DNA of 64,000 bases from Botryllus schlosseri (lineage: Eukaryota): NCBI GenBank assembly GCA_051294905.1, contig CM119371.1, forward strand, positions 124,001-188,000, read 5' to 3'. The position numbers and the translations under genes are program-made. Positions 1-39,221 of this stretch are shown piece after piece. Within the stretch, counting starts at the first letter, position 1; each line of letters begins with the position of its first letter. The notes below the pieces were generated by a model. The model worked only from the letters and a program-made list of their open reading frames with translations. It searched no databases and was not told where the DNA came from.

Positions 1-3000
1 TTACGAGTGTGAAAAGGATTTGCACGCCCTGTGCAGAGTATCGCGGTAGTGAACATATTTTTCGCGTGACGAAACACGATCGCTGTTTAAATGTTAATGC
101 ATGCATTTCGATTACCGAGTTGCTATACAATAGAGACGACTCTACATTAGATCATGATGTGTGCTTCGATTAAAACCGCAAGACCACATGAAAATCTATT
201 CGCACAACTCGATGATGTTGATATAGTGTTACTAAAATTAATTATTACGTATTTACACAACATAAAAATACCAATTCATGTCGTAGTAAGTAAGTTTCTT
301 GACCTCGTGCTTGATGAAAACGAATGGCGACAAGTATGCTGTTGTGTTTGAGTGAAAAATAATTATTTAGAGTAGTGACAGTTTGTGACCAACGAATGCA
401 AATTGATCATGATATTACAATATACACTTTCATCAACATAACGACTTGACACAGGAGAAACACTTTCACGTTTTTCAATAACTCGATTCTTGAAACTTGT
501 TACTTTTACGATGTATCGTTGGGGTGCAAACTATAACGACCATTTTGTATGATAGTATGTTTTAGTTGTATTGTTGTGAGGACAATCATATGATGACTCA
601 GCACTTTTCGCTAGCAAAGTAAATTGTTTTGTGTGTTAGATTTGTGGAAAGTAAGTCGAATACATATTTTTTTTTGTGGAAGTAACTGTATTATTGTGAT
701 ATCATTGGCAGGTCTCTCAAGCAGTGACCATGGTTTTGTTTTTGAAAGATGTATCGATATAATATTTTCTAAAAGTCAAACTCGGACGGTTATCATGACT
801 GTGTGGGACTTACGATAAACACCTTTGTTACAAGAACTATGATATTTCTGTAAGTATTATAGTTGTGTGTTGGATTATTTGAATATTTAGATGTGTGACC
901 ATTCGTGTAAAAAAGTTTGTAGAGTCTAAACAACCATTTGGTTTCGTAGTGTAAGGATATGAAGTAAAGTCGACTACTTTGTGTGATGTAAATATCCTTC
1001 GTACTTTTGTAAGAGTTGTGGGAGGGTGCTCATTCATACCCTACAAAGTAACTAGTTGATACAAACAAAATAATGAATGACCGCCAACACATTGAATTCA
1101 TAACCCAAGATTGTGAAAATTGTTTACTGTTAGACTAACATAATTCGTATCCAGCAAAACGATAGACACCAAAGGTTCGATGGGGTTTAAATCTAGATTG
1201 TATTAAGCGAAGTGATGAGTACCTCCAGTAATAAAATCGAAACGGCCAAAACAAATTTTCTGTGTCTTGGTTGTTGTAAATAACTATTTGGTATGATATT
1301 AGTTGAGTGTGTGACAATTCGTATCTGTCGAGGCTGAATGCTTAACCATATCGAAATGAATCCAGAGCACATGAAGTATACATTGGTCACAATAGAATCG
1401 ATGAGAATGTTAACCACGTAGAGTGTGTTTGTTTAAAAATCATTTCCAATGCGGCTACTTCGATCGGTATTAATTCCATGTCATACAAAAAATATGAAAC
1501 CATTGTACAGTTTCGTTTTACGAGAATATTGAGTAAAGTTGATTATTTTTTGTGTCACGAAAATATCTTGTGTTGATATTGCACACTGGTTTCGTTACCC
1601 AAGTGAGTGAAAATTGTTTTCTACTGGACAGATATGATTTGTATTTAGAAAAAACGACCCACACCGATAAAGCGACGTTGTATAATATCCACTGAGTGCG
1701 TGAAATTGCCTTACGATTTGATTTAGCGAGTTAATTGTTGGTGATTCAATCACATACAAGTATATGGTCTTTTAGTGACTGAGTATTGTGACGACATTTA
1801 CTTTGACAAATGGCAATGGGAAAATTTCCAATTTCTCTGCTCGTGTGTGTTGCACAAATAGTACTAGTATGCATTCAGTGAACATCATACAAATTGACAA
1901 CGACTTTCATTAGTTTGGTTAGATGATGACAATTATTCCGCAGGTTCAAATCGATATCACTACTATGAACAACAATACAAACACATTTTTCTAGATTTCA
2001 GTGTAGCACATACTTCGATTTTATTATTGTTATGAGTTTTGTATTAACCAAGGTCGGTTGAATAGGATCCATCCAGTAAAGATATTCAAAATTGTTTCTC
2101 TGTTGATCAAAGTCTTAGAGTGTAACCTCGTAATGTTTTACATTTCACACATTCGACAGAGAGTGTGAACAGAGTTTAACACGGATTAAACGACGCCGCC
2201 CGGAGTCCAAAGTGATTTACTCGTACTGCGTAAGATGAGTATGTTTCAATTCACCGTCACAGATTCTGACAATAAAGTATTACCCGGTTGTTAGCCAGCA
2301 AACGGAATTGTTGTTTCATCTTTAGTCTTGGTAACTTAAACGATTACATTTGTAAAGTATTTTCTGATATCCGCGATACCCAGAGTGATTTGTACCAAGG
2401 TGGAATGATTTGTCAATCAAGAACATTTCAGACACGTATAGTTTTACAACTCAATATGTTAATAGCCATGATAGTGAAAAGTTTGTTGCTGTCGTAATAA
2501 CCTTCACCACATCGGTGGGTCTAATTAACACAAATAAATTAGTAATCAAGTCATGATAGACCATTACAAAACCCCATATGTCAAATCGATGTGACAATCC
2601 TGGTAATTTTCGATATAACACCTACGTTCGATTGTAAGAAATGAATTCTCAACTACGATGGCCAGACTTTCAAATCTTGTATACTCAAACATGTTAGGTC
2701 AATCTCAAGGCGTCTGCATCGAGTAGTAATTACTTTTGTCTTACAAAATCTATCGAGTAGTAATTACTTTGTCTTGAAAAATAGTAACGACTTTTACAGT
2801 TGAACAAAAAAGACGAGTTGGTGGTATATGGCTAAAACCGAACTTGATATGTTTGTGGGTTGTAGTGATTACTTGCGTAGTCTTGTCTACTTTTCGTATG
2901 GACACTTTTTGCTTTGGTTCGGTGAGTTACAAACGGATTGGCTTGACAAGGTTTGTGTATTTTACTCTTTTGTTGATGGCAAGATGGTGAGATGTCGAGG

Positions 3001-3935
3001 CGTAATACTATTTCCGTACACTCAATTACAACAAAACATAACCCGCATTCAAATAAGCCGTAAGCTACAAGCGGATTTAAAACTTGATGCTGTTTTGTGG
3101 TTGACTCAAGTCAGTAGTCATGTTTGTGTTGATTTCGGGAATGATCATGACGAGTTGGTCGGGTAAATTAGGTAATGTGGTAGTAACTACGACCTTACCG
3201 AGTTGCTGACATTCAAATATCTTTTACGGATTTAATTGTGATAAATTATTTCTCAGTTATTGTTCAGACATTCAAATCTCGTATACTCAAAATATAATAT
3301 GTTCAAGTCGAATCGTGTATGCACCGATTAGTAAATACTTTGTCTTCAGAATAGTAACGAGCTTTACAATCGAATGAAAAAAAGAAAGACAGATCATACG
3401 AATACAACCAGGATGAATTAATTCAAATTTATGAGTTGTAGTGATATAATCAAGTAAGTGAAAACTAGATTTTTAACAATTGTTATTGTTGTGAATAATT
3501 CTTTTCAGTATGGTAAGATGTTAAAATATCTCTTTGACAAACGGAAAGCGGGGCCGTGAATAGAGTTGCAATGTTACATTACTTGTTTCAAATCAATGTG
3601 TGTATAATATCGAAACGGGCCTGTGGGAAAGTTGGTAGTCATGTTTGTCAATCCTATTTCAATTCACACTACGCCAAAGTCAAAATATTCGGTTTCGGAT
3701 TATCTCAATTTACCTCTAGAACATCTCGCGAATGGATTCCGACACCGTACTATAACTAGATCGCTATGTCTGATGCATTATCCTGTCAGCGACCGTAGGG
3801 TTTTACAATTATTTCACACGTTTTTGAATAAGCATCCACTTCGCAAAGGATTAGGGTTGGATCAGAAATAAGTGAGAATTTGTCGGTATTCGAATCACCG
3901 TCTGCGACGGTTCTGTTATTCGTTAATTATTAAAT

Positions 3936-4306
3936 CTAGACCAGATACCGAAGAAACCAACTAACGGAAAATTCGCTATCATCATTAATTACGACGAGTC
4001 GAGTTTGCCTAGGTCTCGCTGGGTGTGTGTATATACAGAGATGGCGATACTCATTTTCATGATTCACTAGGATTCGGACCACTAAAACCTCAGATAATCG
4101 AATTCCTGGAGCCGGATGAATTTTCTGTGACTGGGAAACAGTTACAGAGTAAAACTTCGGATGTGTGTGGAGATCATGCTATTGCATTCTTGATAAAAAG
4201 AGCTCAAGGGTTTTCAGCCGAGGAATACTTGGATAATTTTGGCGATGATCAAAAAGTGAATGATACGATTGTACGTGCTTTTGTGAAGAGTTTGATTTCA
4301 GAGTAA
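3936..4306 (+). pseudogene. Adenovirus-type cysteine protease (peptidase C5, Polinton PRO) pseudogene
   Basis: One frame reads LDQIPKKPTNGKFAIIINYDESSLPRSRWV. After a slip in GTGTGTGT (~4023-4030) it continues CIYRDGDTHFHDSLG...QLQSKTSDVCGDHAIAFL. This matches the Polinton PRO pattern IINxD..PGSHWV..FDSxG..QxQ...SxxCG. The catalytic His position reads Arg (CGC, 4017-4019). Confidence 0.8.
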
Positions 4307-4799
4307 TAAACGAATGTGTAAATGTGTATACTTGTGATTCTTGTTGCAACTGTGAACAGTGGACTATTCTGTAGGTGTGAAACAGCGAATAAGCCGAAAG
4401 TATTATTCAGGTAGCAATCAATAGCGAGGAAAGAGAACACGATCGGTCATTTGACACGACTAAACTACGACATCATATATCATAATTTACGATCAAACTA
4501 TTTCGCACTGAATGGAATAGTGTAATAAGCGATAGTAGCACACAGCTGCATGGGAAACAATTCACCGCGCAGGTCATTCGAAATATAGGTCGCACTGCTT
4601 AATCCTCGCAACAAGCCACGTTTCCGTCCGCGTGGTTATTGTTGGTGACTCGTACATATTCAACACCATGCGAGAGATACTCGAAAGTACGAATCATCGC
4701 CGCGTCCATAAGAATAACGATATATCATTGTCGTACTCGCCGTAATTTGGAATATACACATTACCTAAGGACCAATCACATGACTATTTACTTGATACA

Positions 4800-5075
4800 T
4801 ATTCAACACCGTGCCGCCGCGCCTATACCCACAACGTTAGTCAAATCATCTCTCCTGAAAGGTCACCATGTCACCGCGCCTATACCTGAAAAGGTAACCA
4901 TACCACCACGAGTTTTCACGGCACCGTGCCGCCGCGCGTATACCCGAAAAGGTAACCATGCGACCCCCGCCATAAGACACAATGGCACCGTGCCACCCCC
5001 GCCATAAGAGATAAGGGTCACCGTGCCACCCCCGGTTTCTCGGCACCGTGCCACCCCGCCCATAAGAACCCCATA
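4800..5075. repeat. GC-rich subterminal motif array of the first Polinton-like element
   Basis: Repeated cores GGCACCGTGCCACC / GGTAACCATGCGACC alternate with recurring spacers CCTATACCCGAAAA, CATAAGA, GAGTTTTCAC. Confidence 0.75.
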
Positions 5076-5389
5076 GCCCGTCACGACCGATCTACTTAAC
5101 TACTTACGAGTCGGATAGTGAGAGATGATTTTTTCGTGTACTGAAACTATGCGCCATGAAAGTCAATTTATCCAAGAGAATGTTCGTTCCGATTGACTTT
5201 TCCACTGTGGGAGTCTTGAAAACTAGATTGGTCATATAACAGCATATGAATCCTGTACTACAAAGCTAAGCAAGTTAGTGGAAATGGCTTGATCAGCCCA
5301 CAGCAACATAGCCTTACAGGACTGGGTGGTCACGTAGTCATTGTTGGTGCTCAAGCAGAAGTAATGTCATGCAATCTAGAGTACAAGTA

Positions 5390-17484: not shown

Positions 17485-19392
17485 ATTTACACTATTGATA
17501 CATGCTCCCGATTAAAAAATGGACGGGACCACTCCAACTTCTGTTCGAGTTTAATCAATGAATATTTCGATAGTTTCTATAAAAATTATGCGACAACATA
17601 ATACGACCACTGACCGTATTTATTTCACATCAAGCAGCTTAACAATCTAGACGTATTAATTTTCGACCTATGTCGTGTCGACATATAAATTTTTCGAGTA
17701 TCTCATCAAATCTCTCGTTTTCTAAGATAACAAATATTTCTCCCAAGAAAATGATATCGGCTTGGTCTGATTAAAGCAAGTAATCATGCATTGAAGTGAC
17801 GCATTACTGCCGAAGATCAACTTTACTATTGCTCATTAGTGGAGATGGTCAGTAACCAAGTACTTCTACTTTTTCAAAGTACAAAAGTACGTGTCGCCCA
17901 CTTTCACTACTTACTGAAGCATTTACAATACTGATTACTTTTATTTCTACTTCACAATTTTCATTTTTTTAGCAAAACTAGGAATGATGTGATAAGTTTG
18001 TTGCGACTCGATCTAAAATGATGTATGACAACGCTGTTACATTATTGCAGGAAAAGCAAAGTTTTTTTTTATCAAAGATACATGTTGTGTACCGCGTGTC
18101 ATCGTTATGACGTAACTTTCCGACATCACAATAAATATTATTGTATAATAATTTGAATATTACACGGAGCGTGCCACAATATTTCTAGGATGCTGTTTGA
18201 AACCGGATGTGTATGAGAGTGGATCGACGATGTAAGGGAAGGATAAATCTCAACTCTCATTTTAGAGCGGTCAGACTTTGTATCATCAACTCACCTGTAA
18301 TAAAAATCCAAGTCGAGTCTCTGCCAGACATCTTTAAAATCGAAGGGGAAACGTAGCACTAAAATGAAAAAGAGTATACAGATACAAGATATTTGTTAGT
18401 AAACGATGTATGAATCATATGAATTGTGCTCTGTTGCTGAAACAATCATCTGGCTTGAAGATAGTTGATATAATATAGAATATAAAGAGAAGAATATATC
18501 GTAATTAGGCGTAATGAACCAGCGCTTGTCTACTATTTTAAATCCGGATCCTATTCCAGATGATCCATTCAAATCCAAGTACAAATCCCTATTTAATTTT
18601 GTATCGCGTCCATATCCAAGTCCAATCCGGTAATGGTGGAAACTTGATTAAAAAGTCGCATGAAAATTTAAACTTACGAAAATTTCATGTAAAAGTACAG
18701 ACGCATATACATCTTCGAATTAATCATAAATAAACATCAAAAACCAGTTACAAGAGACGCGTGACCTCAATACCATAGATATGCATAATCAAAATCGCTA
18801 TATTATTTGTTCTAGTTTCCGTTCGAAAGCGGTGGCTTTTGAAGGGAAGGTTGCTGCGGCCAAAATGTTTTTCACATTCTCCACTTTCATTTCATATAAT
18901 ATTATATTTAGAGCGCATTCTGGTTTTAATGTGTTATAGTTATGTCAGTGGGCAGTGAAATGAGAAATCACACCCAATATAATGCCGCGACAGTACAATG
19001 CATATAACATATATCTAATCCAATTAGATACGGGAATGAGTGAAAGTAACTCTTATCCATTTGTAAAATATTCCCTGCAATATGCAGCTAATTATTTACG
19101 TGTTGTCAATCGATTCAAATCACTAAATTTATATTCGATTTATATTCGCACCGGTTCCACGTTCTGTGAGATACTTTCACAGAACGAATATGAACTCGCA
19201 AATTCGTTTTCGTATCAAGGGTAAATCGAAAGAAGAAATCCCGAATGCTATTTCAAGACAAAACGATTTCGGAATTAATGCAATTTTGTTGAACCTAAAA
19301 TAATGCACAATGCACATGAATGATGAAATGGTTCGTATCAACGCCAACATAAAAAGTGGGATGCTGTATGACATAAAACCACGAATCCTGCA

Positions 19393-19975
19393 GATAGGTG
19401 GTCAGTAACGGAGTAACTCTACTTTATCAGACCACTCAAGTAGTGCTGTCCACTTACATCGCTTAATCAAGGGGTTGTCATTTTAGACTACTTCTGTTTC
19501 TACTTCTTGTCACAATTGTTAGTGAAAACTACTTACTTCATACAATATTGATTTTGAAAAGTATCAAGTTGTTCCTAGCTGTGTATTCGTCATCGTTTTC
19601 AGTGAAATTTTTATGGGAGGCGCCTTAAATATCCCATGTATCACGGTGACTGCATGAACATATTTTCAAAGATTCCACACAGTTGCAGTGTCATTTAGTC
19701 ATTTTGCATTAGCCGCGAAGTTATATCTTGCAATTTCGAAAGTAGATATCTCCTATAAACTGTTATAAACGTATGCGGCCCTTCGATCAAGTCTACTTTT
19801 TGACACTACTTATTTCACTACATTTCGGGCTGATACATTTTCTATTTCGACCTCAAGTCAATTTGTGATTTCTTGGAAATTGCTACTTCTGCTTGTAGCC
19901 TATATCAGCAGCAGCTTACGGCGCTATTTATCGTTCCACATGAGTCTTAACTTTCGACTACTTTGACCACCTCTA
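19393..19975. mobile_element. AGTA/TACT-rich MITE family; other copies at ~17840, ~37633-37854 and ~38053-38970
   Basis: Ends AGGTGGTCA...TGACCACCTCTA, with internal CTACTT/AGTAG repeats shared across the loci. Confidence 0.55.
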
Positions 19976-20275
19976 ATCATTCATGAACTCATTTTAGCAA
20001 CTCTCAGAACCAATTGGAGTGCGCTTGGTCACCAGATGTCGTAAATAAGCTGCATGAAGTAATAAATTTGTTCCATAGTTATAAAAGTATATGAAAGTGG
20101 TTTACAAGTATATTTGACTCATCGTCCCCTTATCAAGCTCGATATATCTTTATCACGCCCATAATGGAAGAAGTACTATCAGCAGCGAAGTAGTTGTGCT
20201 TTTCTGTAGTACTTATTATAATATACTTGTTAGTAGTATAGTCGATCGGTCGTGAGCGGCTAATTTTTTGCATTG

Positions 20276-20925
20276 GTTCTTATGGGTGCGGCGGTGAGGT
20301 GCCGCGAAAACTCGTGGTGGTGATGGCACCCTTTTACACCCCCTCTCGGCGGTGAGGTGCCATGTGTTCTTATGGATGCGGTGATGATGGCACCCTTTCG
20401 GGTATAGGCTGCGGCGGTGAGGTGCCGCGAAAACTCGTGGTGGTGATGGCACCCTTTCAGACCCCCTCTCGGCGGTGAGGTGCCATGTGTTCTTATGGAT
20501 GCGGTGATGATGACACCCTTTCGGGTATAGGCCGCGGTCGTGATTCGCCGTGAAAACTCGTGGTCGTGACTCGCCTTTTTTGCTATAGGCGGTGGCGGCG
20601 ATTCGCCTGTCGTGTATTCTTACGGGATCTGTGGTGATTCGCCATGTGTTCTTATGGGCGGGGTGGCGATTCGCCTGGAAACCCGGGGTGGCGATTCGCC
20701 TTTTTAGACCCCCCTCTGGGCCGCGATTCGCCATGTGTTCTTATGGGTGCGGTCGTGATTCGCCTTTTCGGGTATAGGCTGCGGTGGTGATTCGCCGTGA
20801 AAACCTGGGGTGGTGACTCGCCTTTTTTGCTATAGGCGGTGGCGGCGATTCGCCTGTCGTGTATTCTTACGGGATCTGTGGTGATTCGCCATGTGTTCTT
20901 ATGGATGCGGTCGTGATTCGCACTT
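20276..20925. repeat. GC/CpG-rich subterminal array, probably the original TIR; mirror at ~34280-34928
   Basis: About 25-bp units of a core (GGTGATTCGCC / GGCGATTCGCC / GGTGAGGTGCC / GATGGCACC) plus recurring spacers. A higher-order 123-bp duplication starts at 20287 and 20410. Confidence 0.85.
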
Positions 20926-23900
20926 TCAACCATCTCTCGCGTGGTGTTGAATAGTCACCAACAATAACCGCACAAACGGAAACGTGGCTTGCAAGAGGAT
21001 TAAGCAGTGCGACCTATATTTCGAATGACCTGCGCGCTGAATTGTTGCCCGTGCAGCTGTTTTGTGCTACTATCGTATCGATTATTACACTAATCCAGTC
21101 AGTGCGAAATAGTTTGCTAAATCTAGGAATCACTTCCAAGGTAATATTTTGGTAATTAGTTTACCGCAGAGCCGGCGTAGTCGGCGATTCGAATATCAAC
21201 AATAACCGCGTTCACAAACTAACACTTCAAAAATGTGTGAAATAGTTTGCAAAACCCCGCGATCTCTGACAAGACTCGGGTGACATGATAACGTTACAGG
21301 TATAGGCTGAGGTGGTGATTCGCCATGTGTTCTTATGGGTGCGCTCGCACGTCGTACTTTCAAGTATAGGTATCTCTCGCATGTCGTATTGGAAACTCGT
21401 GTTGGCTCGCTCACGCGGTGAAATTTTAGTAATCAGTTTGTCGCAGAACTTGATTTCACTCATAAGATTTAATAAGTAACGAATAACAGACCGCCAGTGT
21501 GGGTAACTTGAATAGCGACAAATTGTCACTTATTTCCGCTCTAAGCCTAATCCTTTGTGAAGTGAACGCTTATTCAAAATGTTGTGATATAATTTTAAAA
21601 TCCAACGACCACTCACCGGATAATGCTGCAGACATAGCACTCTCTCATGCCCGCTCACATGGTAATATTTCGGTAATTAGTTTGTCACAGAACCGTCGCA
21701 GACGGTGATTCAAAACCAGCAATTTGTCACTTGCCCGCGATCGCTATATGTTTTGACACTTCAGAAGAGTGGTTGACTTTAGTTGCGTGATACAAATCAT
21801 GAGAATATTCAATCAATGCGTCAATTTGTCAACTCGAAATGAAACTCACTACACAGTTCAAGTTGATTCGTATCTGAATGTGTTAATTCGGTACAATTCT
21901 AATTATTTTGAGAAATCTTTTCGTGATCTTTTGATTCGACTGCAACCTGAATATTACTGACACCGACTTTTAGCCACATCGAATTATTCGCACACTCCGC
22001 GCCGTCGTTTTCATAGCTATAGAATCAATACCAACTATAACTCTACAAGAATCAAGAATCACAAGTATGTGCATTATACAGTTATTGTCTTTATCAACAC
22101 GAAATCAAACTCTTAACAAAAACACGCAACTAATCATTTGGCAACTCTAGCATTACCAAAAAATTCCAGTATTGTTGATTGAAAATCCTTGAGTCATTAT
22201 TATCAAAAATGTTATAGTACCGCATCGGAATCCATTCGCGGGATGTACTAAAGGTAAATCCAGATAATCCAAAATGAAATATTTGGACTTTGACAAACAT
22301 GACTACCAACTTTGATCCAGTCACATTTCAAGATTACACTTTGAAACAATCCTTGAAACTTACAACTCTATTCACGACTGAGTTTTCCGTTTATCAGTTT
22401 CAGTAAATACTATCGCGATATTTTTATGTGTTACTACACACAATAGAATCAATCAATGAAATAGCACCTGTTGTAAATATTTCTAACTTGACAACCACTT
22501 ATGCATACCGCGATCGACTTGTGACGCGATGAGTTAAATCGGAATATTTCAATCTATTTTTTGAAACCTTGAACAAGCTATCAGGTGTTTTTTTTTGTAA
22601 TCGAGTGAACGGAAATAGTATTACGTCTAAACATTTTACCATCTTCCCATAAACAAAAGAGTAAAATACAAAAAACCTTGTCAAGTCAACCCGTTTGTAA
22701 CTTACCCAACCAAAGCAAAAAGTATCCTTATGAAAAGTAGACAAGACTACGCCAGTAATCACCACAATCCAAAATCCATAGCAAGTTCGGTTGTATTCAT
22801 AGTCCACCAACTCGTATTTTTATTCAACTGTAAAAGTCGTTACTACTCTGCAAGACAAAAAAAAATTACTATGTGGTATATTTTGTAAGACAAAAGTAAT
22901 TACTTCTCGGTGTCGGCGACTTGAGATTAACATATGTTTTGAGTATATGATATTTGAATGTCTGACCAACGTAATTGAGAACTCATTTCTTACAATCGAA
23001 CGATTGTGTTATATTCAAAGTTATCATGCTGTGAACATAAGGATTGACACATTGCTTTGACATATGAGATTTTGTAATAGTTGATCATTACTTTATTATT
23101 GAATTATTTGCGTTAATTAGACCCGGCATTGTGGTAAATGTTATGACAGCAACAAACTTTTCAGTACCAATGTTATTAACATATTAAGCTGTAAAACTAT
23201 GTGTGTCTGAAATGTTCTTGATAGGAAAATTACTCCACCTTGGTAAAAATCACTCTGCGTATCGCGGATATCAGAAAATATTTTCAGTAACAAAGACTAA
23301 AGATGAAACGACAATATCGGTATTATTACATTCAACAATCAGTACAATTATTAAAATCTATCGTTTGCGATAAACAACACTAAAGATGTAATAATTCCAG
23401 TATTCATACATTAAACCTCCGATACAAAATGCTTTATTATCCCGATTCCCAACGGGTAATTGAAACGACTAAGTGTAGAATCAGTATATCACAGTATCGT
23501 TACTATTGAATCCAACGATTTATCGTCGGAATTTGTGACAGAGAATTGAAACATATGCACTTTACAGAGTGTGAAAATATCACTTTGAGTATCGAGTACC
23601 GTTCGAAGCTAGCGATGAATTCTCAATCATTTCAGTAACTCCCCCCATTGTGCGTGCTAAATGTAAAATATCGCGAGGTTATACACTCTAAGACTTTGGT
23701 CATTACAAAAGTAAATTGTGATATGTTTGTTAGATGCATCCAATTCAGTTAGAAATGTCTGATGCACAACAATCGTAATATCAAAAAAGTACTTGCTACA
23801 CTGTTATTTGCTAAACGTGTTTTGCATTGTTGTTCATTTGTAGTATTGATTGAAATTGTTCTTGAACCCTCAAATAATAATTCCTGACATGAAACTAAGC

Positions 23901-23990
23901 CGCCGAAAGTCGTTACCATCACAAAGAAACAATTTGCACGATGTTTACTAAATGTGTCCTATAGTTAGGTGTACTGGAATTATTAGTAAA

Positions 23991-24016
23991 ACACACACAC
24001 ACACACACACACACAC
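23991..24016 (+). repeat. (AC)13 microsatellite; mirror (GT)14 at 31180-31207
   Basis: Read directly. Confidence 0.95.
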
Positions 24017-25753
24017 GATCAGAGAAATTGGAAATTTTTCCGTTGTCATTCGCTAAAGTAAATGTCATCACAATACTCTGTCACTAAAAGACGTTACTTG
24101 GACGTGCTTGAATTCTAGACATAGTTCTGATTTACCCAACACAAGACCCAAGGACAACCCTAGTTTCACCCAAACACAGATATCCAAAATATCACACACT
24201 TCGCTATTCCTAAAGCACAAACACCCGATACAAAATAATACTTATTGTGTTGTTGCGGCATCATCACTCAACAATATCACCCTCAATACAAATGATGTTT
24301 ATGTGTAACATGCTATTGATTTGAACCACACCCACCTGGCGGAAGAGGATTTACTCAATCTTTACAAAATGGATATTGACCAACATCACATCACCGGATT
24401 GTATCTGTTTCGCTGGTTACGAGTTATGTTAGTTTAACAGTAAACAAATTTCACCCTCTTGGATTATGAACTCAATGCGTTAGCGATCATTCAATATTTT
24501 GTTTGTGTCAACTAGTTACTCGGTATGTTACTCCACAACTCTTACAAAAGTACGAAGGATATTAACATCACACTAAGTAATTAACTTTACTCGATATTCT
24601 CGCATTACGAAACTAAAGAATGGTTGGTTAGACTCTACAAACTGTTTCGATATCATAAGACCTTTATTGTCTGAATGGGTGTTCCTGTGTCTTAAGAACC
24701 AAATAGTTCAACACAGCACTAGTACCAACAGAAACATCAGAGTTGTTTACACAAAAGTTTGTATGCGTGCAGTATGCGAATACCATGTGTAAGTCCAGCA
24801 CAATTGCAGTATCCATCCGAGTTTAGTCAACACAAATTTATTACAACGGAGCCACGTAAACTTTCGTGAAAGAAAAGCATACTCACTTCCAGAGGGTTAT
24901 GTCAACACCATAGCAGTAAATCAGCTACTCCAACAACAAAGTACATATGTTTCTAGCCACGATCCTTACATCTTTCACATAGATCAATCTACTTTGCTAA
25001 CGAAAAGTGCTGAGTCATCACATAATCACCCTCACAACAAAACAGCTAGTAGATATTATCACTCAAAATATTCCTGACCCTTTACACACCAGTGACAAAT
25101 CATACAACGAATATGTTTTGGGGGTCGAATTGTTGTTCAGTGTCAAGTCTACCTGTTGAAACGTACATTAAAACAACACAGTCACAATTCAATTAAAACC
25201 ACGAATCTATTTTCATTTCCTCGCAAACTGTCACATACAGAAAAATAAATTTTATTCTGCCAAAACATACTTGTAACCAATCGCTTTCATTAAACACACA
25301 ACACCATAAAAGTATTTACTTTCTACAACATAGACATTCCGATGTAGTCAAGAAATATTTTTATTAATCAAAATCATCGACTTCTGTTTACGGCGTTAGT
25401 GTGTGCATGTCATACATGTGGGATCCGTATTAAAATGGACACGACACGACTGAATGTAAGGGGGGTAGAAGTCTATCACATCGATTTACATGTGGTCTTC
25501 GCTACGGTTTCAAAAAACGAATCATCTCTTTTGCATTGATCGAGACCGAGCAAGTTAGTTAATGACCATGATTGTGTTTGTCATATGCGAATGATAGGGT
25601 TACTGTCAAATCTACATACAACAACCTTCTGGCACTCATAATAGCAATTTCATTCTCTCCCTTCGTAATTGTAGACTCACGACAAGTATATTGTACAGCT
25701 CGACAGCTACGTTTAACAACACCAACGACACAAAACATACGATACCTACGCAA

Positions 25754-26360
25754 GTAAAATTACCATTTTCACCTGGAGGTCAGTCGTTACCTGAGTAAAA
25801 ATACCATTATTCTTTGGAGATTTATCGTTTATTCAGAGTAACAATCCCCTTTTCACTTGGAAATATATTTTTGGCCTGAATAACAAACCCCTTTTCACTT
25901 GGAAATCTATTTTTGCCCTGGATAACAAACCTTTTTCACTTGGAAATATATTTTTTCTCTTGGTAACAAACCTTTTTCACTTGGAAATATATTTTTTCTC
26001 TGGGTAACAAACCTTTTTCACTTGTAAATATATTTTTTCTCTTGGTAATAAACCTTTTTCACTTGGAAATATATTTTTTCTCTTGGTAATAAACCTTTTT
26101 CACTTGGAAATATATTTTTTCTCTTGGTAACACACCTTTTTCACTAGGGAATATATTTTTTCTCTGGGTAACAAACCTTTTTCACTTGGGAATATATTTT
26201 TTCCCTGAGCAACAAACCATTTTCACTTGGTGGGTCGTCGTTGACCTTAGTAAAAATATCATTTTCCTTTGGAGATCCGGCGTTTACCAGTGTAACAATA
26301 CATTTTCTCTTGGTCATCTAACTTTTCCTAGAGTAACAAAAACCATTTTCATTTTGAAAT
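25754..26360. repeat. 41-42 bp minisatellite, about 14 units
   Basis: Central unit GTAACAAACCTTTTTCACTTGGAAATATATTTTTTCTCTTG; flanking units are more diverged. Confidence 0.9.
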
Positions 26361-27601
26361 CTGACAAACACACCTGACAATTTGGTATTTGTTGTATTGA
26401 CGATAGTTTGAAATAGATTACAACGAGCAGTGACGGAAATATACACGGACTACCGGTTTCAGAGTATACCTCCATCAGTCGTATCACAGCAATATCATCG
26501 GTTAACCTTATACAATATCCTCTTGTACACAGAAATGCATGTTTCGGAAAATTGGACAATAGACTTCGATAGCTCTGTGATGTCCAGGTTCACGCTTTGG
26601 ATTTTCCAGAGTCAAAATGTCTGAATAAAACACCTCCTCGATGATGGTTGGTATGTGGATAACGGTATTCGGAAAACGGTTGGATTTATGTCTCCCATCG
26701 CGATAACAACTCCAGGTCGAGTTTTCCTCCGCATGTTTACTATATTGTGTCTTTATTGGTCAATGTATGTCTCGACATTCAGTTTGAAATCGGAAACCCT
26801 GATAAAGTATGTAGCCGGATCCGGATATCAATTCTGAATCGATAAACCAATGAACAATATTCAAAGTAAACATGTTACATCCTGTGTTTCCACGAAAAAA
26901 TACCATCCAGACATACGTCGCGCTTGTTTACCCACAACAGTATACGCGTAAATGGAGGTGTGTGACATTGCATGCAATGTGTTGGTATACAAACATCGGG
27001 GAGTAAGCCTTCGATCCACAGACATTATCATAGCCGGTAGTTTTGATGTAGATCTAATGTCATCAAGCACACCCGATAACAATGTCATACCAATAAGCCA
27101 CATTGCAACGACTCTGAGTCAATCTGAAGCAGGACATACAGACACACAGACATGGAACCGTAACATGGGTTATTCGCACGACAGTGAAAGTGAACTGTAC
27201 AGTACATACCAATATTGTGATCACAGTCAAATATGCGAACCGTGCACAATCATATACCCAGGTTTTTGTTGGATATGTACGAAACCGATAAATCGATACA
27301 TTTCTTTTCCTTTGACGTCAACAATACAATCACCATTCCAATGTATTGCTCGAATGTGAGGTTCATCTGGTGTAAAATCCATGTCAAATAACACCAAAGT
27401 GTGCTTTCCGTGTTTTATTATTTCCACCGTCGCTTCTTGTCTGTGTCGTAACACTATGGTGCAGGGACTTGAAAAACGGTGGATTGTGAAACAGATTGAC
27501 ATGACCAACAGAATCGACGTCAATAGACTTGTGACGATGTCGTTTCAAAATGCTCCGATATGACGAGCGCAACCTCGATCTATTGTGGCGATGACCGTTT
27601 C

Positions 27602-27657
27602 GAAATGTTACCGGACGAACTGGACCCTTGAAATGTTACCGGACGAACTGGATCCTT
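27602..27657 (+). repeat. 28-bp tandem duplication at the centre of the palindromic element
   Basis: GAAATGTTACCGGACGAACTGGA(C/T)CCTT twice. Confidence 0.95.
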
Positions 27658-28835
27658 ACGATGGTGTGTTTTATGATTGTGTGTGAAATCACGAGGCAGT
27701 GTTTTATTGTGGTATACGATTGCAGTCTTCATTCCCACTGAAACACACCTTATTGGATCACAGTATCAGCCCGAGATTTGCAGAATCACTGTTCACGATA
27801 TTTATCTGGAGTCGTTATGTGGGAGTAGTGACATCCATGCATCGTGATTTAGTGAAAGACTGATCGCAATCATTTCGAGCACTCGTACTAGATCAAACGC
27901 TGTAGCCTCAGCAGAAAACTTCGGTGTCGACAACACGATTGATATTGACCGATGTATCCAATTGGTCTGGGTGGTCTGTCCGGAGATAGGGCCATAACTA
28001 TCTTGTAATGTTACAACACGATAACACCATCGAGTAAATCAGTGAACGGTGCCGAAATATCGATGTAATAGCGCGGACTCAGAGTCATCGCAATGTGGCT
28101 TATTGGTATGACATTGTTATCGGGTGTGCTTGATGACATTAGATCTACATCAAAACTACCGGCTATGATAATGTCTGTGGATCGAAGGCTTACTCCCCGA
28201 TGTTTGTATACCAACACATTGCATGCAATGTCACACACCTCCATTTACGCGTATACTGTTGTGGGTAAACAAGCGCGACGTATGTCTGGATGGTATTTTT
28301 TCGTGGAAACACAGGATGTAACATGTTTACTTTGAATATTGTTCATTGGTTTATCGATTCAGAATTGATATCCGGATCCGGCTACATACTTTATCAGGGT
28401 TTCCAATTTCAAACTGAATGTCGAGACATACATTGACCAATAAAGACACAATATAGTAAACATGCGGAGGAAAACTCGACCTGGAGTTGTTATCGCGATG
28501 GGAGACATAAATCCAACCGTTTTCCGAATACCGTTATCCACATACCAACCATCATCGAGGAGGTGTTTTATTCAGACATTTTGACTCTGGAAAATCCAAA
28601 GCGTGAACCTGGACATCACAGAGCTATCGAAGTCTATTGTCCAATTTTCCGAAACATGCATTTCTGTGTACAAGAGGATATTGTATAAGGTTAACCGATG
28701 ATATTGCTGTGATACGACTGATGGAGGTATACTCTGAAACCGGTAGTCCGTGTATATTTCCGTCACTGCTCGTTGTAATCTATTTCAAACTATCGTCAAT
28801 ACAACAAATACCAAATTGTCAGGTGTGTTTGTCAG

Positions 28836-29442
28836 ATTTCAAAATGAAAATGGTTTTTGTTACTCTAGGAAAAGTTAGATGACCAAGAGAAAATGTATTG
28901 TTACACTGGTAAACGCCGGATCTCCAAAGGAAAATGATATTTTTACTAAGGTCAACGACGACCCACCAAGTGAAAATGGTTTGTTGCTCAGGGAAAAAAT
29001 ATATTCCCAAGTGAAAAAGGTTTGTTACCCAGAGAAAAAATATATTCCCTAGTGAAAAAGGTTTGTTACCAAGAGAAAAAATATATTTCCAAGTGAAAAA
29101 GGTTTATTACCAAGAGAAAAAATATATTTCCAAGTGAAAAAGGTTTATTACCAAGAGAAAAAATATATTTACAAGTGAAAAAGGTTTGTTACCCAGAGAA
29201 AAAATATATTTCCAAGTGAAAAAGGTTTGTTACCAAGAGAAAAAATATATTTCCAAGTGAAAAAGGTTTGTTATCCAGGGCAAAAATAGATTTCCAAGTG
29301 AAAAGGGGTTTGTTATTCAGGCCAAAAATATATTTCCAAGTGAAAAGGGGATTGTTACTCTGAATAAACGATAAATCTCCAAAGAATAATGGTATTTTTA
29401 CTCAGGTAACGACTGACCTCCAGGTGAAAATGGTAATTTTAC
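28836..29442. repeat. Mirror copy of the 41-42 bp minisatellite
   Basis: CCAAGTGAAAAAGGTTTGTTACCAAGAGAAAAAATATATTT units. Confidence 0.9.
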
Positions 29443-31179
29443 TTGCGTAGGTATCGTATGTTTTGTGTCGTTGGTGTTGTTAAACGTAGCTGTCGAGCTG
29501 TACAATATACTTGTCGTGAGTCTACAATTACGAAGGAAGAGAATGAAATTGCTATTATGAGTGCCAGAAGGTTGTTGTATGTAGATTTGACAGTAACCCT
29601 ATCATTCGCATATGACAAACACAATCATGGTCATTAACTAACTTGCTCGGTCTCGATCAATGCAAAAGAGATGATTCGTTTTTTGAAACCGTAGCGAAGA
29701 CCACATGTAAATCGATGTGATAGACTTCTACCCCCCTTACATTCAGTCGTGTCGTGTCCATTTTAATACGGATCCCACATGTATGACATGCACACACTAA
29801 CGCCGTAAACAGAAGTCGATGATTTTGATTAATAAAAATATTTCTTGACTACATCGGAATGTCTATGTTGTAGAAAGTAAATACTTTTATGGTGTTGTGT
29901 GTTTAATGAAAGCGATTGGTTACAAGTATGTTTTGGCAGAATAAAATTTATTTTTCTGTATGTGACAGTTTGCGAGGAAATGAAAATAGATTCGTGGTTT
30001 TAATTGAATTGTGACTGTGTTGTTTTAATGTACGTTTCAACAGGTAGACTTGACACTGAACAACAATTCGACCCACAAAACATATTCGTTGTATGATTTG
30101 TCACTGGTGTGTAAAGGGTTAGGAATATTTTGAGTGATAATATCTACTAGCTGTTTTGTTGTGAGGGCGATTATGTGATGACTCAGCACTTTTCGTTAGC
30201 AAAGTAGATTGATCTATGTGAAAGATGTAAGGATCGTGGCTAGAAACATATGTACTTTGTTGTTGGAGTAGCTGATTTACTGCTATGGTGTTGACATAAC
30301 CCTCTGGAAGTGAGTATGCTTTTCTTTCACGAAAGTTTACGTGGCTCCGTTGTAATAAATTTGTGTTGACTAAACTCGGATGGATACTGCAATTGTGCTG
30401 GACTTACACATGGTATTCGCATACTGCACGCATACAAACTTTTGTGTAAACAACTCTGATGTTTCTGTTGGTACTAGTGCTGTGTTGAACTATTTGGTTC
30501 TTAAGACACAGGAACACCCATTCAGACAATAAAGGTCTTATGATATCGAAACAGTTTGTAGAGTCTAACCAACCATTCTTTAGTTTCGTAATGCGAGAAT
30601 ATCGAGTAAAGTTAATTACTTAGTGTGATGTTAATATCCTTCGTACTTTTGTAAGAGTTGTGGAGTAACATACCGAGTAACTAGTTGACACAAACAAAAT
30701 ATTGAATGATCGCTAACGCATTGAGTTCATAATCCAAGAGGGTGAAATTTGTTTACTGTTAAACTAACATAACTCGTAACCAGCGAAACAGATACAATCC
30801 GGTGATGTGATGTTGGTCAATATCCATTTTGTAAAGATTGAGTAAATCCTCTTCCGCCAGGTGGGTGTGGTTCAAATCAATAGCATGTTACACATAAACA
30901 TCATTTGTATTGAGGGTGATATTGTTGAGTGATGATGCCGCAACAACACAATAAGTATTATTTTGTATCGGGTGTTTGTGCTTTAGGAATAGCGAAGTGT
31001 GTGATATTTTGGATATCTGTGTTTGGGTGAAACTAGGGTTGTCCTTGGGTCTTGTGTTGGGTAAATCAGAACTATGTCTAGAATTCAAGCACGTCCAAGT
31101 AACGTCTTTTAGTGACAGAGTATTGTGATGACATTTACTTTAGCGAATGACAACGGAAAAATTTCCAATTTCTCTGATC

Positions 31180-31210
<31 letters not shown>

Positions 31211-32982
31211 ACTAATAATTCCAGTACACCTAACTATAGGACACATTTAGTAAACATCGTGCAAATTGTTTCTTTGTGATGGTAACGACTTTCGGCGGCT
31301 TAGTTTCATGTCAGGAATTATTATTTGAGGGTTCAAGAACAATTTCAATCAATACTACAAATGAACAACAATGCAAAACACGTTTAGCAAATAACAGTGT
31401 AGCAAGTACTTTTTTGATATTACGATTGTTGTGCATCAGACATTTCTAACTGAATTGGATGCATCTAACAAACATATCACAATTTACTTTTGTAATGACC
31501 AAAGTCTTAGAGTGTATAACCTCGCGATATTTTACATTTAGCACGCACAATGGGGGGAGTTACTGAAATGATTGAGAATTCATCGCTAGCTTCGAACGGT
31601 ACTCGATACTCAAAGTGATATTTTCACACTCTGTAAAGTGCATATGTTTCAATTCTCTGTCACAAATTCCGACGATAAATCGTTGGATTCAATAGTAACG
31701 ATACTGTGATATACTGATTCTACACTTAGTCGTTTCAATTACCCGTTGGGAATCGGGATAATAAAGCATTTTGTATCGGAGGTTTAATGTATGAATACTG
31801 GAATTATTACATCTTTAGTGTTGTTTATCGCAAACGATAGATTTTAATAATTGTACTGATTGTTGAATGTAATAATACCGATATTGTCGTTTCATCTTTA
31901 GTCTTTGTTACTGAAAATATTTTCTGATATCCGCGATACGCAGAGTGATTTTTACCAAGGTGGAGTAATTTTCCTATCAAGAACATTTCAGACACACATA
32001 GTTTTACAGCTTAATATGTTAATAACATTGGTACTGAAAAGTTTGTTGCTGTCATAACATTTACCACAATGCCGGGTCTAATTAACGCAAATAATTCAAT
32101 AATAAAGTAATGATCAACTATTACAAAATCTCATATGTCAAAGCAATGTGTCAATCCTTATGTTCACAGCATGATAACTTTGAATATAACACCATCGTTC
32201 GATTGTAAGAAATGAGTTCTCAATTACGTTGGTCAGACATTCAAATATCATATACTCAAAACATATGTTAATCTCAAGTCGCCGACACCGAGAAGTAATT
32301 ACTTTTGTCTTACAAAATATACCACATAGTAATTTTTTTTTGTCTTGCAGAGTAGTAACGACTTTTACAGTTGAATAAAAATACGAGTTGGTGGACTATG
32401 AATACAACCGAACTTGCTATGGATTTTGGATTGTGGTGATTACTGGCGTAGTCTTGTCTACTTTTCATAAGGATACTTTTTGCTTTGGTTGGGTAAGTTA
32501 CAAACGGGTTGACTTGACAAGGTTTTTTGTATTTTACTCTTTTGTTTATGGGAAGATGGTAAAATGTTGAGACGTAATACTATTTCCGTTCACTCGATTA
32601 CAAAAAAAAACACCTGATAGCTTGTTCAAGGTTTCAAAAAATAGATTGAAATATTCCGATTTAACTCATCGCGTCACAAGTCGATCGCGGTATGCATAAG
32701 TGGTTGTCAAGTTAGAAATATTTACAACAGGTGCTATTTCATTGATTGATTCTATTGTGTGTAGTAACACATAAAAATATCGCGATAGTATTTACTGAAA
32801 CTGATAAACGGAAAACTCAGTCGTGAATAGAGTTGTAAGTTTCAAGGATTGTTTCAAAGTGTAATCTTGAAATGTGACTGGATCAAAGTTGGTAGTCATG
32901 TTTGTCAAAGTCCAAATATTTCATTTTGGATTATCTGGATTTACCTTTAGTACATCCCGCGAATGGATTCCGATGCGGTACT

Positions 32983-33105
32983 ATAACATTTTTGATAATA
33001 ATGACTCAAGGATTTTCAATCAACAATACTGGAATTTTTTGGTAATGCTAGAGTTGCCAAATGATTAGTTGCGTGTTTTTGTTAAGAGTTTGATTTCGTG
33101 TTGAT
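32983..33105 (+). pseudogene. Eroded C-terminal remnant of the Polinton protease; mirror at ~22093-22215 on the minus strand
   Basis: ATAACATTTTTGATAATAATGACTCAAGGATTTTCA (ITFLIIMTQGFS) and CGTGTTTTTGTTAAGAGTTTGATTTC align to ~4181-4300 (IAFLIKRAQGFS...RAFVKSLIS). Confidence 0.65.
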
Positions 33106-35408
33106 AAAGACAATAACTGTATAATGCACATACTTGTGATTCTTGATTCTTGTAGAGTTATAGTTGGTATTGATTCTATAGCTATGAAAACGACGGCGCG
33201 GAGTGTGCGAATAATTCGATGTGGCTAAAAGTCGGTGTCAGTAATATTCAGGTTGCAGTCGAATCAAAAGATCACGAAAAGATTTCTCAAAATAATTAGA
33301 ATTGTACCGAATTAACACATTCAGATACGAATCAACTTGAACTGTGTAGTGAGTTTCATTTCGAGTTGACAAATTGACGCATTGATTGAATATTCTCATG
33401 ATTTGTATCACGCAACTAAAGTCAACCACTCTTCTGAAGTGTCAAAACATATAGCGATCGCGGGCAAGTGACAAATTGCTGGTTTTGAATCACCGTCTGC
33501 GACGGTTCTGTGACAAACTAATTACCGAAATATTACCATGTGAGCGGGCATGAGAGAGTGCTATGTCTGCAGCATTATCCGGTGAGTGGTCGTTGGATTT
33601 TAAAATTATATCACAACATTTTGAATAAGCGTTCACTTCACAAAGGATTAGGCTTAGAGCGGAAATAAGTGACAATTTGTCGCTATTCAAGTTACCCACA
33701 CTGGCGGTCTGTTATTCGTTACTTATTAAATCTTATGAGTGAAATCAAGTTCTGCGACAAACTGATTACTAAAATTTCACCGCGTGAGCGAGCCAACACG
33801 AGTTTCCAATACGACATGCGAGAGATACCTATACTTGAAAGTACGACGTGCGAGCGCACCCATAAGAACACATGGCGAATCACCACCTCAGCCTATACCT
33901 GTAACGTTATCATGTCACCCGAGTCATTATCTTGTCAGAGATCGCGGGGTTTTGCAAACTATTTCACACATTTTTGAAGTGTTAGTTTGTGAACGCGGTT
34001 ATTGTTGATATTCGAATCGCCGACTACGCCGGCTCTGCGGTAAACTAATTACCAAAATATTACCTTGGAAGTGATTCCTAGATTTAGCAAACTATTTCGC
34101 ACTGACTGGATTAGTGTAATAATCGATACGATAGTAGCACAAAACAGCTGCACGGGCAACAATTCAGCGCGCAGGTCATTCGAAATATAGGTCGCACTGC
34201 TTAATCCTCTTGCAAGCCACGTTTCCGTTTGTGCGGTTATTGTTGGTGACTATTCAACACCACGCGAGAGATGGTTGAAAGTGCGAATCACGACCGCATC
34301 CATAAGAACACATGGCGAATCACCACAGATCCCGTAAGAATACACGACAGGCGAATCGCCGCCACCGCCTATAGCAAAAAAGGCGAGTCACCACCCCAGG
34401 TTTTCACGGCGAATCACCACCGCAGCCTATACCCGAAAAGGCGAATCACGACCGCACCCATAAGAACACATGGCGAATCGCGGCCCAGAGGGGGGTCTAA
34501 AAAGGCGAATCGCCACCCCGGGTTTCCAGGCGAATCGCCACCCCGCCCATAAGAACACATGGCGAATCACCACAGATCCCGTAAGAATACACGACAGGCG
34601 AATCGCCGCCACCGCCTATAGCAAAAAAGGCGAGTCACGACCACGAGTTTTCACGGCGAATCACGACCGCGGCCTATACCCGAAAGGGTGTCATCATCAC
34701 CGCATCCATAAGAACACATGGCACCTCACCGCCGAGAGGGGGTCTGAAAGGGTGCCATCACCACCACGAGTTTTCGCGGCACCTCACCGCCGCAGCCTAT
34801 ACCCGAAAGGGTGCCATCATCACCGCATCCATAAGAACACATGGCACCTCACCGCCGAGAGGGGGTGTAAAAGGGTGCCATCACCACCACGAGTTTTCGC
34901 GGCACCTCACCGCCGCACCCATAAGAACCAATGCAAAAAATTAGCCGCTCACGACCGATCGACTATACTACTCTTGTTTCGCTTACTCAAGTAGTTTTGT
35001 TCGTATACGACATCTACCTCAACAATTTTTTTATTGGTAATACTAATTTTTGCATACTTGGCATTGTCTAGTAAATTTTGACGCACACTGACGATGCCTT
35101 GCTTCAGAATTAACACGTTAAGCTTACAAGCAGCAACGTGTGGGAGATCATGCCTGAATTTCGTACAACAATTAATCGTATTAAGTATGGGATATCGAAA
35201 TCCACTAAAATTCATAAATACCGTGCATTATCACATAACCCTGATAACGACATTATGTCATGCATATAACTAAAGCCTCATGATTTCTAGCATTAGTAAC
35301 GGATTGGACCTGTTCCGTGAATTGACCATTACATTCAAAGTGATCGCGCTCATGTAATATACCTAATTAGGCGTATCTAAGATACGATGCAACCAAACAA
35401 TGACTCAC

Positions 35409-37418: not shown

Positions 37419-39221
37419 CTGAACACAATATTGATTTCATTAGTTGATATGACGTAATTGTCTTGATGTTTTCTCATTTGAATAATTATTCATATTGGTA
37501 AAGTTCAATACTGATTCGTTAGAATTCTTTGGTTCTCCATAATGCATTTGCTACATCGGTTTCAGTCTCATTCCAGAGTTTGATATCTTTCAAAAATATA
37601 CTTCTATTCATTGTACAAACGTATCATATAGAAGGTGGTGGTCAAACCAGTCACCGTCGTTACTCAAGTAGAAGTGAAAGTAGCGATATACAATTAAGTA
37701 AAATATAATTATTGTAGGCATAGTTTCGCGTAAAAATGATAACTGCCTAATAGAAGTAGTCTGAAATCTTAGCTACTTGAGTATGTAGGACAAGTAGATA
37801 AATCTACCTGAAGTACTACGGCAAGTAGAAGTACTTCGTTATTGACCACCTCTAGATAAATGCTGTAAGGAACGCTGGATAGCGTATGTAGCGATGTCGC
37901 TTATGTTTACGCAAAGGTTGAATTTTACCCGAGCAGTAAAACATATACAGCATACCCTATTTTTAATATTATCTACCTGCTTTCGAAACCTAGATTTTGA
38001 GCAGACATTGTTGCTTTTCACCTCAAACTTCGCCAAGCTTGAGCGCACATTGCGAGATGATCAGTAGCAATCTGCTTCTACTTCTTCAAAGTATGTGGTT
38101 GATGTAACGATTTCACTTATGTAATTGATTCAAAATTATACCAGAAACATGTACTGCACTCTAAAAATGATATGGTCTCAAATTGAAGGGCGAAACAAAA
38201 ACAAAAATTTGGCTCCAGCCATTTTCTTCAGAACGCCGACGTATTGAAGCTGCAATTTAATGAAATTTCCGCAGGACCTTCACGCTTCAGCAGTCATGCA
38301 AAGTCCGAACTTTATATAGTTGTCAGCCAATGTTATGAAGGAAATATGCCGTACACGTCAAGGTGGTTTAGATAACGCGTTCAACGGAAGATGCTCAGTG
38401 AGGAGATTTATGTCAAAATTGGGCCCAGTGTATTCTATTTCTTCAGGACAGAAATAAATGATGCTCAACAATTTTCTTACGAATAAACAATATTGTATGC
38501 ATAAGAATAAGACATGATTCTAGACTACTTTCACGCAAAATTGCTTACTTTTCACGGAATGGATTTTGAGAGATAGAAAGTGGTTTTGTGTTACGTTTGT
38601 ATCACTGTGATACGTGAAACCGTCTCAAGAAATCGCAATAGACATCATGGTAACTGTTGAATCGAATTTCCAAGATTATACAAATTTGCAATAATAATCA
38701 TTTTTAGTTACTCGCAGAGACTCATCTTGTAATTTACAAAGTAACCGCTAGCGATAAATCACCAAACACTTACGAGCGATCGACCAAAACTACTTCCCGA
38801 AACTCAAGTACTTACAAAGGTACTTTTCCAACTTGTCACTTTCTACGTCCACTTGAAGTAGTTTTAACACATGGTGGACACATCTAATTCTACATATAAT
38901 TGCATATAAAATTAAAACGTTTCTCCTACTCCTTCACTATTATCAAGGCTGACTACTTTCACCACATCTACGTACAATCAAGACTCGACTGGCAATACTA
39001 GAGATGCAAGTAGAAGAGAAATTGAGAATGGAAGTTTTTGTCGAACAGTGAAGAGCGGATTTGATATTTCAAAATACAAATCCTCTTCAAATACAGAATT
39101 TATTTTGTCTTACCTCCAAGTTCAAATCCGATTATGGCTGAAATTTGTCCAAAAGTATCATGGAAATTGAACAATATCAGGAAATATTTTACAATAATAT
39201 TACAGGAAATGTATCTAATAC

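Follow-up and report, generated by a model that had tools for sequence, protein, structure and literature searches.

An abundant, gene-less and almost fully palindromic element with Maverick-type ends in the genome of Botryllus schlosseri

How does a stretch of almost 15 kb that is folded back on itself over nearly its whole length, and that carries no gene, come to lie in a genome? The question is raised by a 14,741-bp element in a 64,000-nucleotide stretch of Botryllus schlosseri DNA (assembly GCA_051294905.1, contig CM119371.1, positions 124,001 to 188,000 of the forward strand). The whole stretch is referred to as the window, and all positions are given in its numbering. The element occupies positions 20232-34972. 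An earlier description made from the letters alone, hereafter the sequence-only reading, had taken it for a hairpin Polinton (Maverick), a candidate snap-back, defective-interfering (DI) virus genome integrated in trans. On balance, the analysis favours a non-autonomous element with Maverick/Polinton-type ends, belonging to an abundant gene-less repeat family and present in the window as a genuine insertion.

Structure of the palindrome and its relation to Mavericks

Alignment of the two inverted arms from end to end gave ten mismatches, one 6-bp and one 2-bp insertion or deletion (indel), corresponding to 99.74% identity. Together the arms account for 93.5% of the 14,741 bp. The 2-bp indel lies in an (AC)n run and is a microsatellite length difference. 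AGTAGT opens the element and ACTACT closes it, i.e. both ends carry the same (AGT)2 terminus, and the whole 14.7-kb palindrome is enclosed by one perfect 6-bp target site duplication (TSD), CTTGTT. A match at six of six positions has a chance of 1/4096. Because the bases adjoining the two CTTGTT copies differ, the TSD is exactly 6 bp long. The sequence-only reading had described this architecture, namely AGTAGT/ACTACT ends with a perfect 6-bp TSD and two near-identical 6.9-kb arms covering about 94% of the element around a 955-bp spacer, and it was borne out by the alignment and by the positions of the duplicated 6-mer (Table 1).

In vertebrate Mavericks the ends carry conserved 6-nt motifs, of which the commonest is 5'-(AGT)2//(ACT)2-3' with a perfect 6-bp TSD, as stated in the description of termini by Barreat & Katzourakis (2021, PMC8097293). 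The ends of the element are of this commonest vertebrate type, and the Polinton/Maverick ends and 6-bp TSD named in the sequence-only reading were thereby confirmed. The size figures of the same survey give 12.7-24.6 kb for intact vertebrate Mavericks, with terminal inverted repeats (TIRs) of 46-1,447 bp; elsewhere, lengths of 13-25 kb, TIRs of 100-1,500 bp and TSDs of 5-8 bp are given (PMC10748475). A terminal tandem repeat of 1-3 bp is tied to protein-primed synthesis in the part of PMC4196379 that deals with it. The element resembles vertebrate Mavericks, as far as these descriptions reach, in its 6-nt end motif, its perfect 6-bp TSD, its possession of TIRs and its length of 14.7 kb, which falls within 12.7-24.6 kb. 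It is unlike them in the extent of the inverted repeats, 6.9 kb or 93.5% of the element compared to 46-1,447 bp in the survey. Furthermore, the defining Maverick genes are all missing, and the family of the element is apparently far more abundant than Mavericks usually are. The 6-nt end motif and the perfect 6-bp TSD, which characterize Maverick-type mobilisation, were thus both found, and of the genes that characterize an autonomous element none was found. With regard to ends and TSD, the assignment of the sequence to a non-autonomous, almost fully palindromic Maverick-type element appears well founded.

The search for coding content was negative throughout. Pfam was run on six frames of 20232-28078 (arm plus loop, with stops read as X) and returned no family at E<=1, although Pfam may lack models for certain Maverick capsid proteins and a very decayed remnant could escape the search. 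No long open reading frame (ORF) was observed. The longest stop-to-stop ORFs, of 174 and 176 aa, both lie within the GC-rich terminal tandem repeats, in accordance with the statement of the sequence-only reading that no intact gene is present. A RING-finger match on an ORF crossing an arm-loop junction scored 17 bits against a cut-off of 27 and was discarded as noise. The rve integrase family gave no match in the element, in a second copy of the family located near the window start or in 33 other window ORFs of at least 90 aa. Scanning the complete window for Rfam families and for tRNAs returned 0 matches.

The second family copy, which is diverged and extends past the window start, was used to look further back. 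A codon-phase test was performed on the blocks common to both copies. In five of five blocks no third-position excess was detected, the substitutions were spread evenly over the three phases, and most of the gaps were frame-breaking. Pfam on six frames of 1-5204, which contain the diverged copy, gave 0 families at E<=0.1. As the diverged copy is non-coding too, the content of the arm was already non-coding when the two family lineages split. The protease remnant that the sequence-only reading had placed in both arms was not recovered, in view of the absence of Pfam families in six frames and of codon periodicity, and the heavy coding decay it had assumed has no basis, since neither Pfam nor the codon-phase test revealed a trace of coding ancestry. 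The element encodes nothing and its integration therefore needs a factor in trans; on this point the earlier proposal is supported.

The diverged copy is also informative in regards to the end of the element. It has an AGTAGT terminus at 5104, adjoined by a different 6-mer. A pattern of the 24-nt terminus matched three times in the window, at the two element ends and in the diverged copy, compared to 0 matches in 100 shuffles. Because the diverged copy starts exactly at AGTAGT with the 24-nt terminus, the boundary of the element is independently supported. The degenerate 24-nt terminus gave 0 matches in metagenome_contigs and 0 in viral_contigs, and the same result was obtained in both collections with a 29-nt conserved block. 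No paralogous empty site was found within the window.

Polintons have been reported in Ciona. A literature search on Polinton or Maverick in Ciona, tunicates and ascidians yielded nothing useful among the entries listed, and a search combining Maverick/Polinton with non-autonomous and palindromic revealed no such element in the titles and abstracts listed. The phrase 'non-autonomous Polinton' was scarce in the literature searched, and related phrases gave nothing relevant.

Abundance of the family and kinship of the two arms

Parts of the window stretch were present in 20 public sequencing runs from ten studies, mostly of one organism and otherwise of two related organisms. Four of these runs (X1, X4, X6 and X10, the latter from another organism) were mapped as contigs on 19232-28110; the right arm and the right flank lie outside this 8.9-kb stretch. 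At a threshold of at least 95%, the number of mapped contigs was 110,834 for X1, 6,444 for X4, 5,967 for X6 and 577 for X10. In X1 the summed word depth was 433-1,304 in the left flank, 83k-446k in the arm and 57k-99k in the loop. The corresponding values in X4 were 736-1,688, 54k-391k and 45k-64k. The left flank was covered at 0.5-9 in X6 and at 0-1.9 in X10, and the arm at 573-57,864 and 68-977, respectively. Summed depth in the element was roughly a hundred- to several thousand-fold higher than in the left flank, a measure that does not equal copy number. High repetition of the family was thus seen in the host and also in two related organisms. From the distinct contig numbers it follows that at least dozens of similar copies exist, and judged from depth and contigs together the family probably counts hundreds of copies or more. 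The ratio of arm depth to loop depth was tried as a test of whether the palindrome is the norm in the family and was abandoned as inconsistent, with values of about 2.5 (X1), 2.8 (X4), 4.4 (X10) and 0.65 (X6). No junction at this locus was bridged by any of the mapped contigs listed.

The fold-back itself was traced by another route. Chance ORFs across the arm-loop junctions were used as probes and searched against a protein database of 5.8 billion sequences. Only two database proteins, P0020 and P0021, shared words with the junction ORFs. P0020 (87 aa, from a 5,531-bp contig) crosses the right junction, and 19 of 21 residues beyond it are identical; P0021 (111 aa, from a 696-bp contig) crosses the left junction. 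A 5-residue deletion relative to the window is common to the two proteins, and further changes set them apart from it. Since the two proteins cross the junctions with indel differences, the arm is joined to both loop ends in a copy other than that of the window. Judged from these proteins, the fold-back is not private to the assembly of the window, and its architecture is probably inherited. Two further proteins from the exhaustive search, P0022 and P0023, were chance matches, to a bacterial protein with Ig repeats in one case and to an unrelated protein in the other. If P0020 and P0021 belong to a second insertion, the palindrome transposes; if a diverged genome has them at this very locus, the palindrome is old and conversion has kept its arms alike. 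The propagating gene-less lineage proposed in the sequence-only reading fits both the junctions in P0020 and P0021 and the high repetition, whereas the heavy decay that formed part of the same claim is unsupported. New here are the high repetition of the family in public runs and, as seen in P0020 and P0021, fold-back junctions shared by at least one other copy.

The relationship of the two arms could be followed at single positions. Of the 33 arm positions listed, 15 carry a letter in the window that differs from 94-100% of the depth in X1. Since the ten arm mismatches include none of these 15, the minority letter there belongs to both arms, and by this measure the two arms are each other's closest relatives. 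The arm-mismatch positions listed (25028, 25076 and 25121) have the minority letter in the left arm and the common letter in the right arm, and these differences look like changes that took place after the duplication. Several private letters of the element copy were found only in X1, at a depth of 67-308, and were absent from X4, X6 and X10. A 267-nt contig of X6 matches the left flank at 20127-20231 and breaks off precisely where the element is inserted; the remaining 161 letters match nothing in the mapped stretch. It may represent an empty-site allele or a paralogue. The X1-private letters and the X6 flank contig hint at a young and polymorphic insertion, seen from the left side, with the right flank outside the mapped stretch.

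The ten arm mismatches are not evenly placed. Those at 27107 and 27109, two of the ten, directly precede the 11-bp inner edge of the arm, and the probability of finding at least two of ten mismatches within 14 bp is 2e-4. They were considered as a pre-existing imperfect microhomology that primed the fold-back, an idea weakened by the right-arm state that both outside ORFs, P0020 and P0021, show at this codon. The letter of the left arm at 27109 therefore seems to have changed afterwards. The clustering at the inner edge may be due to a weaker arm-to-arm correction there.

Origin of the palindrome

Three groups of known molecules offer a comparison. Pieris Polintons have TIRs of about 2 kb that duplicate the hexon and adenain genes, according to the description of these TIRs in bioRxiv 10.1101/2025.02.07.637071, and they show that Maverick TIRs can extend inward without loss of transposition. 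Inward growth of the repeat thus has a precedent in these 2-kb, gene-carrying TIRs, and the element would be the extreme case. Unlike the element, the Pieris Polintons have, in the same description, retained the full gene set and a large unique centre. In snap-back viral genomes, for instance of adeno-associated virus (AAV), nearly the whole molecule is copied reverse-complementarily into a symmetric palindrome, as outlined in the parts of PMC13506859 and bioRxiv 10.1101/2020.10.20.346957 that concern these genomes. The element is similar in that its palindrome extends over nearly the whole molecule and is built from one end; it differs in that no parental genome was found for it and that even in the much more diverged copy the arm has no coding content. 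Finally, helper-dependent adenovirus vectors devoid of genes undergo rearrangement when smaller than ~27 kb, and one of 15 kb was packaged as direct and inverted dimers, in the account of vector size given in PMC4189039. These inverted dimers, as that account presents them, resemble the element as gene-less, protein-primed linear replicons in which doubling gives a packageable size. They belong to a laboratory system and are non-integrated, whereas the element is known from integrated sequence alone.

Protein-primed strand-displacement replication, which has been proposed for Mavericks, would be the most economical route both to make and to keep the palindrome. A nascent strand begun at one end would stall, snap back and copy itself, and the resulting self-complementary strand would be converted in the next replication round to a duplex inverted dimer with two valid origins. 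The fold-back would have arisen once, in an ancestor of the family or subfamily, when a one-ended copy of ~7.8 kb (arm plus loop) turned back on itself. Both ends would from then on be 'left' ends and still valid substrates, and the palindromic form could have spread. The strand displaced in subsequent rounds would form a 6.9-kb panhandle, and correction of one arm against the other within it would give near-identical arms without the need for great youth. The arm mismatch of 0.15% would mainly date a young, probably polymorphic insertion. The element would have been integrated in one piece, with an integrase of the Maverick type (retroviral-like, rve) coming in trans from a helper. A snap-back origin in protein-primed replication, DI behaviour and a packaging-size constraint are conjectural, with the inverted dimers of gene-less adenovirus vectors as a close precedent. 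The last of the three seems reasonable given the adenovirus parallel, and it concerns one measured copy. Taken to its full extent, this would make the element the germline record of a natural 'gutless' Maverick satellite: a capsid-sized (14.7 kb) inverted dimer copied by a helper polymerase, its arms re-matched via the 6.9-kb panhandle, integrated by the helper's integrase and outnumbering the helper, with at least hundreds of copies in the genome of a tunicate. This complete version is put forward as a tentative idea and is doubtful as a whole.

Several points weigh against the Maverick-type assignment and against a replicative origin. The link to Mavericks consists of the 6-nt end motif and the TSD length only. 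Traces of the protein-primed polymerase pPolB, integrase, ATPase, protease and capsid proteins were absent from the element, from the second copy and from the 33 window ORFs of at least 90 aa, and no helper Maverick with matching ends was found within the window. Nothing was observed that points to extrachromosomal replication, packaging or interference. The mapped contigs were mostly ~85-270 nt long and, among the pieces listed, none bridges a flank-arm or an arm-loop boundary. P0020 and P0021 cover only ~170 nt of arm beside each loop end and not the full arms, and their source could be this locus in a different individual or species and not a second insertion.

The palindrome could also have been formed at its present position. 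A family member with short TIRs would have inserted, and a later replication or repair error would have copied its left part in inverted orientation. For this, synthesis would have had to change template at the inner junction and to return by homology within the original right TIR, so that the right part was replaced; the palindrome itself would never have transposed. The ends and the TSD are explained equally well by such an origin. The conclusion of the sequence-only reading that the clean TSD shows the palindrome to predate integration is accordingly not airtight, as an in-place expansion of the repeat also preserves the TSD. The letters that are shared by both arms and found in X1 only, at a depth of 67-308, are at about one-locus level and fit mutations that arose in place before the duplication, and the two of ten mismatches within 14 bp of the inner edge would be expected if, in an older palindrome, conversion between the arms becomes weaker towards the edge. 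However, two precisely placed switches are needed instead of one, and the junctions of P0020 and P0021, with their indels, can only stem from a diverged genome with this locus or from a further palindromic copy. The X6 flank contig and the letters absent from X4, X6 and X10 moreover hint at a young insertion, with little time for two stages. An origin in place is considered unlikely. Even less room is left for an assembly artefact, in which a fold-back chimera or a false join of two high-copy repeat copies produced the structure. A highly repeated family invites misassembly, and no read was seen to span the structure. A join of this kind would nevertheless have to account for the same 6-bp duplication on both flanks (chance 1/4096), for arms that differ at ten sites and by two indels, including a microsatellite length, and for a loop made of 955 bp of asymmetric sequence. 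The left-arm-specific letters at 25028, 25076 and 25121 were found in X1 contigs, and the presence of both arm-loop junctions in an independent assembly argues strongly against an artefact, which is regarded as very improbable.

A relationship to other transposons with long inverted repeats was also considered, in which the element would belong to a foldback-type, cut-and-paste family moved by another DDE transposase, and the AGTAGT ends and the 6-bp TSD would be a coincidence. Foldback (FB) transposons produce target duplications of 9 bp and Galileo of 7 bp. FB and other long-TIR transposons share with the element arms that take up most of the length, tandem repeats close to the ends and a lack of coding capacity. 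A foldback family would suit its complete lack of genes, its GC-rich terminal tandem repeats, a very high copy number that is unusual for Mavericks, and the absence of Maverick genes nearby in the window. The TSD of the element is exactly 6 bp long and not 9 or 7 bp, its end motif is unlike that of FB transposons, and its arms are mostly unique sequence and not arrays. The total length falls inside the Maverick range, and the combination of exact (AGT)2//(ACT)2 ends with a 6-bp TSD is, in the portion of the vertebrate survey that treats the ends, the published Maverick signature. Membership in a non-Maverick foldback family is therefore thought improbable.

The Maverick-type reading has consequences beyond this locus. 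To our knowledge, Maverick replication has never been observed. The protein-primed panhandle model of Mavericks is based on gene content and short terminal repeats. A gene-less family with Maverick ends, of which 94% is inverted repeat, would make the panhandle model testable. The model predicts that the arms within every copy are more alike than separate copies, that arm divergence dates insertions in the same manner as the divergence of long terminal repeats (LTRs), and that copy lengths cluster at a packageable size. On this reading, a Maverick integrase would moreover have mobilised elements in trans on a large scale, for which documented cases are rare. Perfect inverted repeats of 6.9 kb in many copies are, in addition, likely hot spots of misassembly and of genome instability in the host.

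Internal features of the arms and neighbouring sequences

The coordinates of the element, of its internal features and of the second family copy are collected in Table 1.

Table 1. Features of the palindromic element and of its diverged relative (window positions; + and - denote strands)
Feature	Position	Strand	Evidence or remark
Left TSD copy, CTTGTT	20226..20231	.	
Right TSD copy, CTTGTT	34973..34978	.	
Left terminus, (AGT)2 followed by an 18-nt end sequence common to the diverged copy (5081-5104)	20232..20255	+	24-nt pattern matches
Right terminus, reverse complement of the left one, closing in (ACT)2	34949..34972	-	
Left arm, 6,889 bp, non-coding	20232..27120	+	Arm alignment, Pfam
Right arm, 6,897 bp, inverted copy of the left arm	28076..34972	-	Arm alignment
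Loop (spacer), 955 bp, asymmetric, 43% GC, without internal symmetry, repeated in the host genome	27121..28075	.	
GC-rich subterminal tandem repeats, ~123-bp units	20287..20848	+	Mirrored at 34283-34917
42-nt block, candidate cis-acting site	20995..21036	+	Mirrored at 34168-34209; also at 4566-4607 in the diverged copy
Tandem array, 41 bp x 9.5, within the arm	25838..26230	+	Mirrored at 28966-29358
Inner edge of the left arm, with an 11-bp near-palindromic end (27110-27120)	27107..27120	+	Partner 28076-28089
135-aa chance ORF over the left arm-loop junction	26952..27356	+	Same arm residues as in the 77-aa ORF, then left end of the loop
77-aa chance ORF over the right arm-loop junction	28014..28244	-	56 arm residues, then 21 of the right end of the loop
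Diverged family copy, non-coding	278..5104	-	64-83% identity in patches; colinear with arm positions 1-5100

The base composition of the arm is uneven, with 52.5% GC in the first 1 kb and 36% in the rest. The 42-nt block is located ~760 bp inside the end and was found to be identical in both family copies, compared to 65-83% identity in the surrounding sequence. From this conservation it is a candidate binding, origin or packaging site.

Several other repeats and genes were observed in the window. Nested inverted pieces of a Penelope-like retroelement are located at 46399-51572; the outer arms are 98% alike, and the two inner palindromes 87% and 98%. Within this array, a 609-aa open frame at 49466-51295 gave a reverse-transcriptase match, and its C-terminal part resembles a GIY-YIG nuclease by inspection, with no Pfam match. 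A 254-aa frame at 10571-11335 resembles the C-terminal part of the frame at 49466-51295. A 227-bp inverted repeat (10385-10611 / 11181-11407), 98.7% alike, overlaps both ends of this 254-aa frame. A 529-aa open frame on the reverse strand (53569-55158) contains NACHT and NOD2 winged-helix domains. Its best named relatives are NLR-like proteins of the ascidian Styela clava, with 33-38% identity, and unnamed relatives reach 50-53%; the Styela relatives accord with a tunicate host. A 290-bp direct repeat (6681-6970 / 38153-38442), 82% alike, is located at a distance on either side of the element and is probably another dispersed repeat family.

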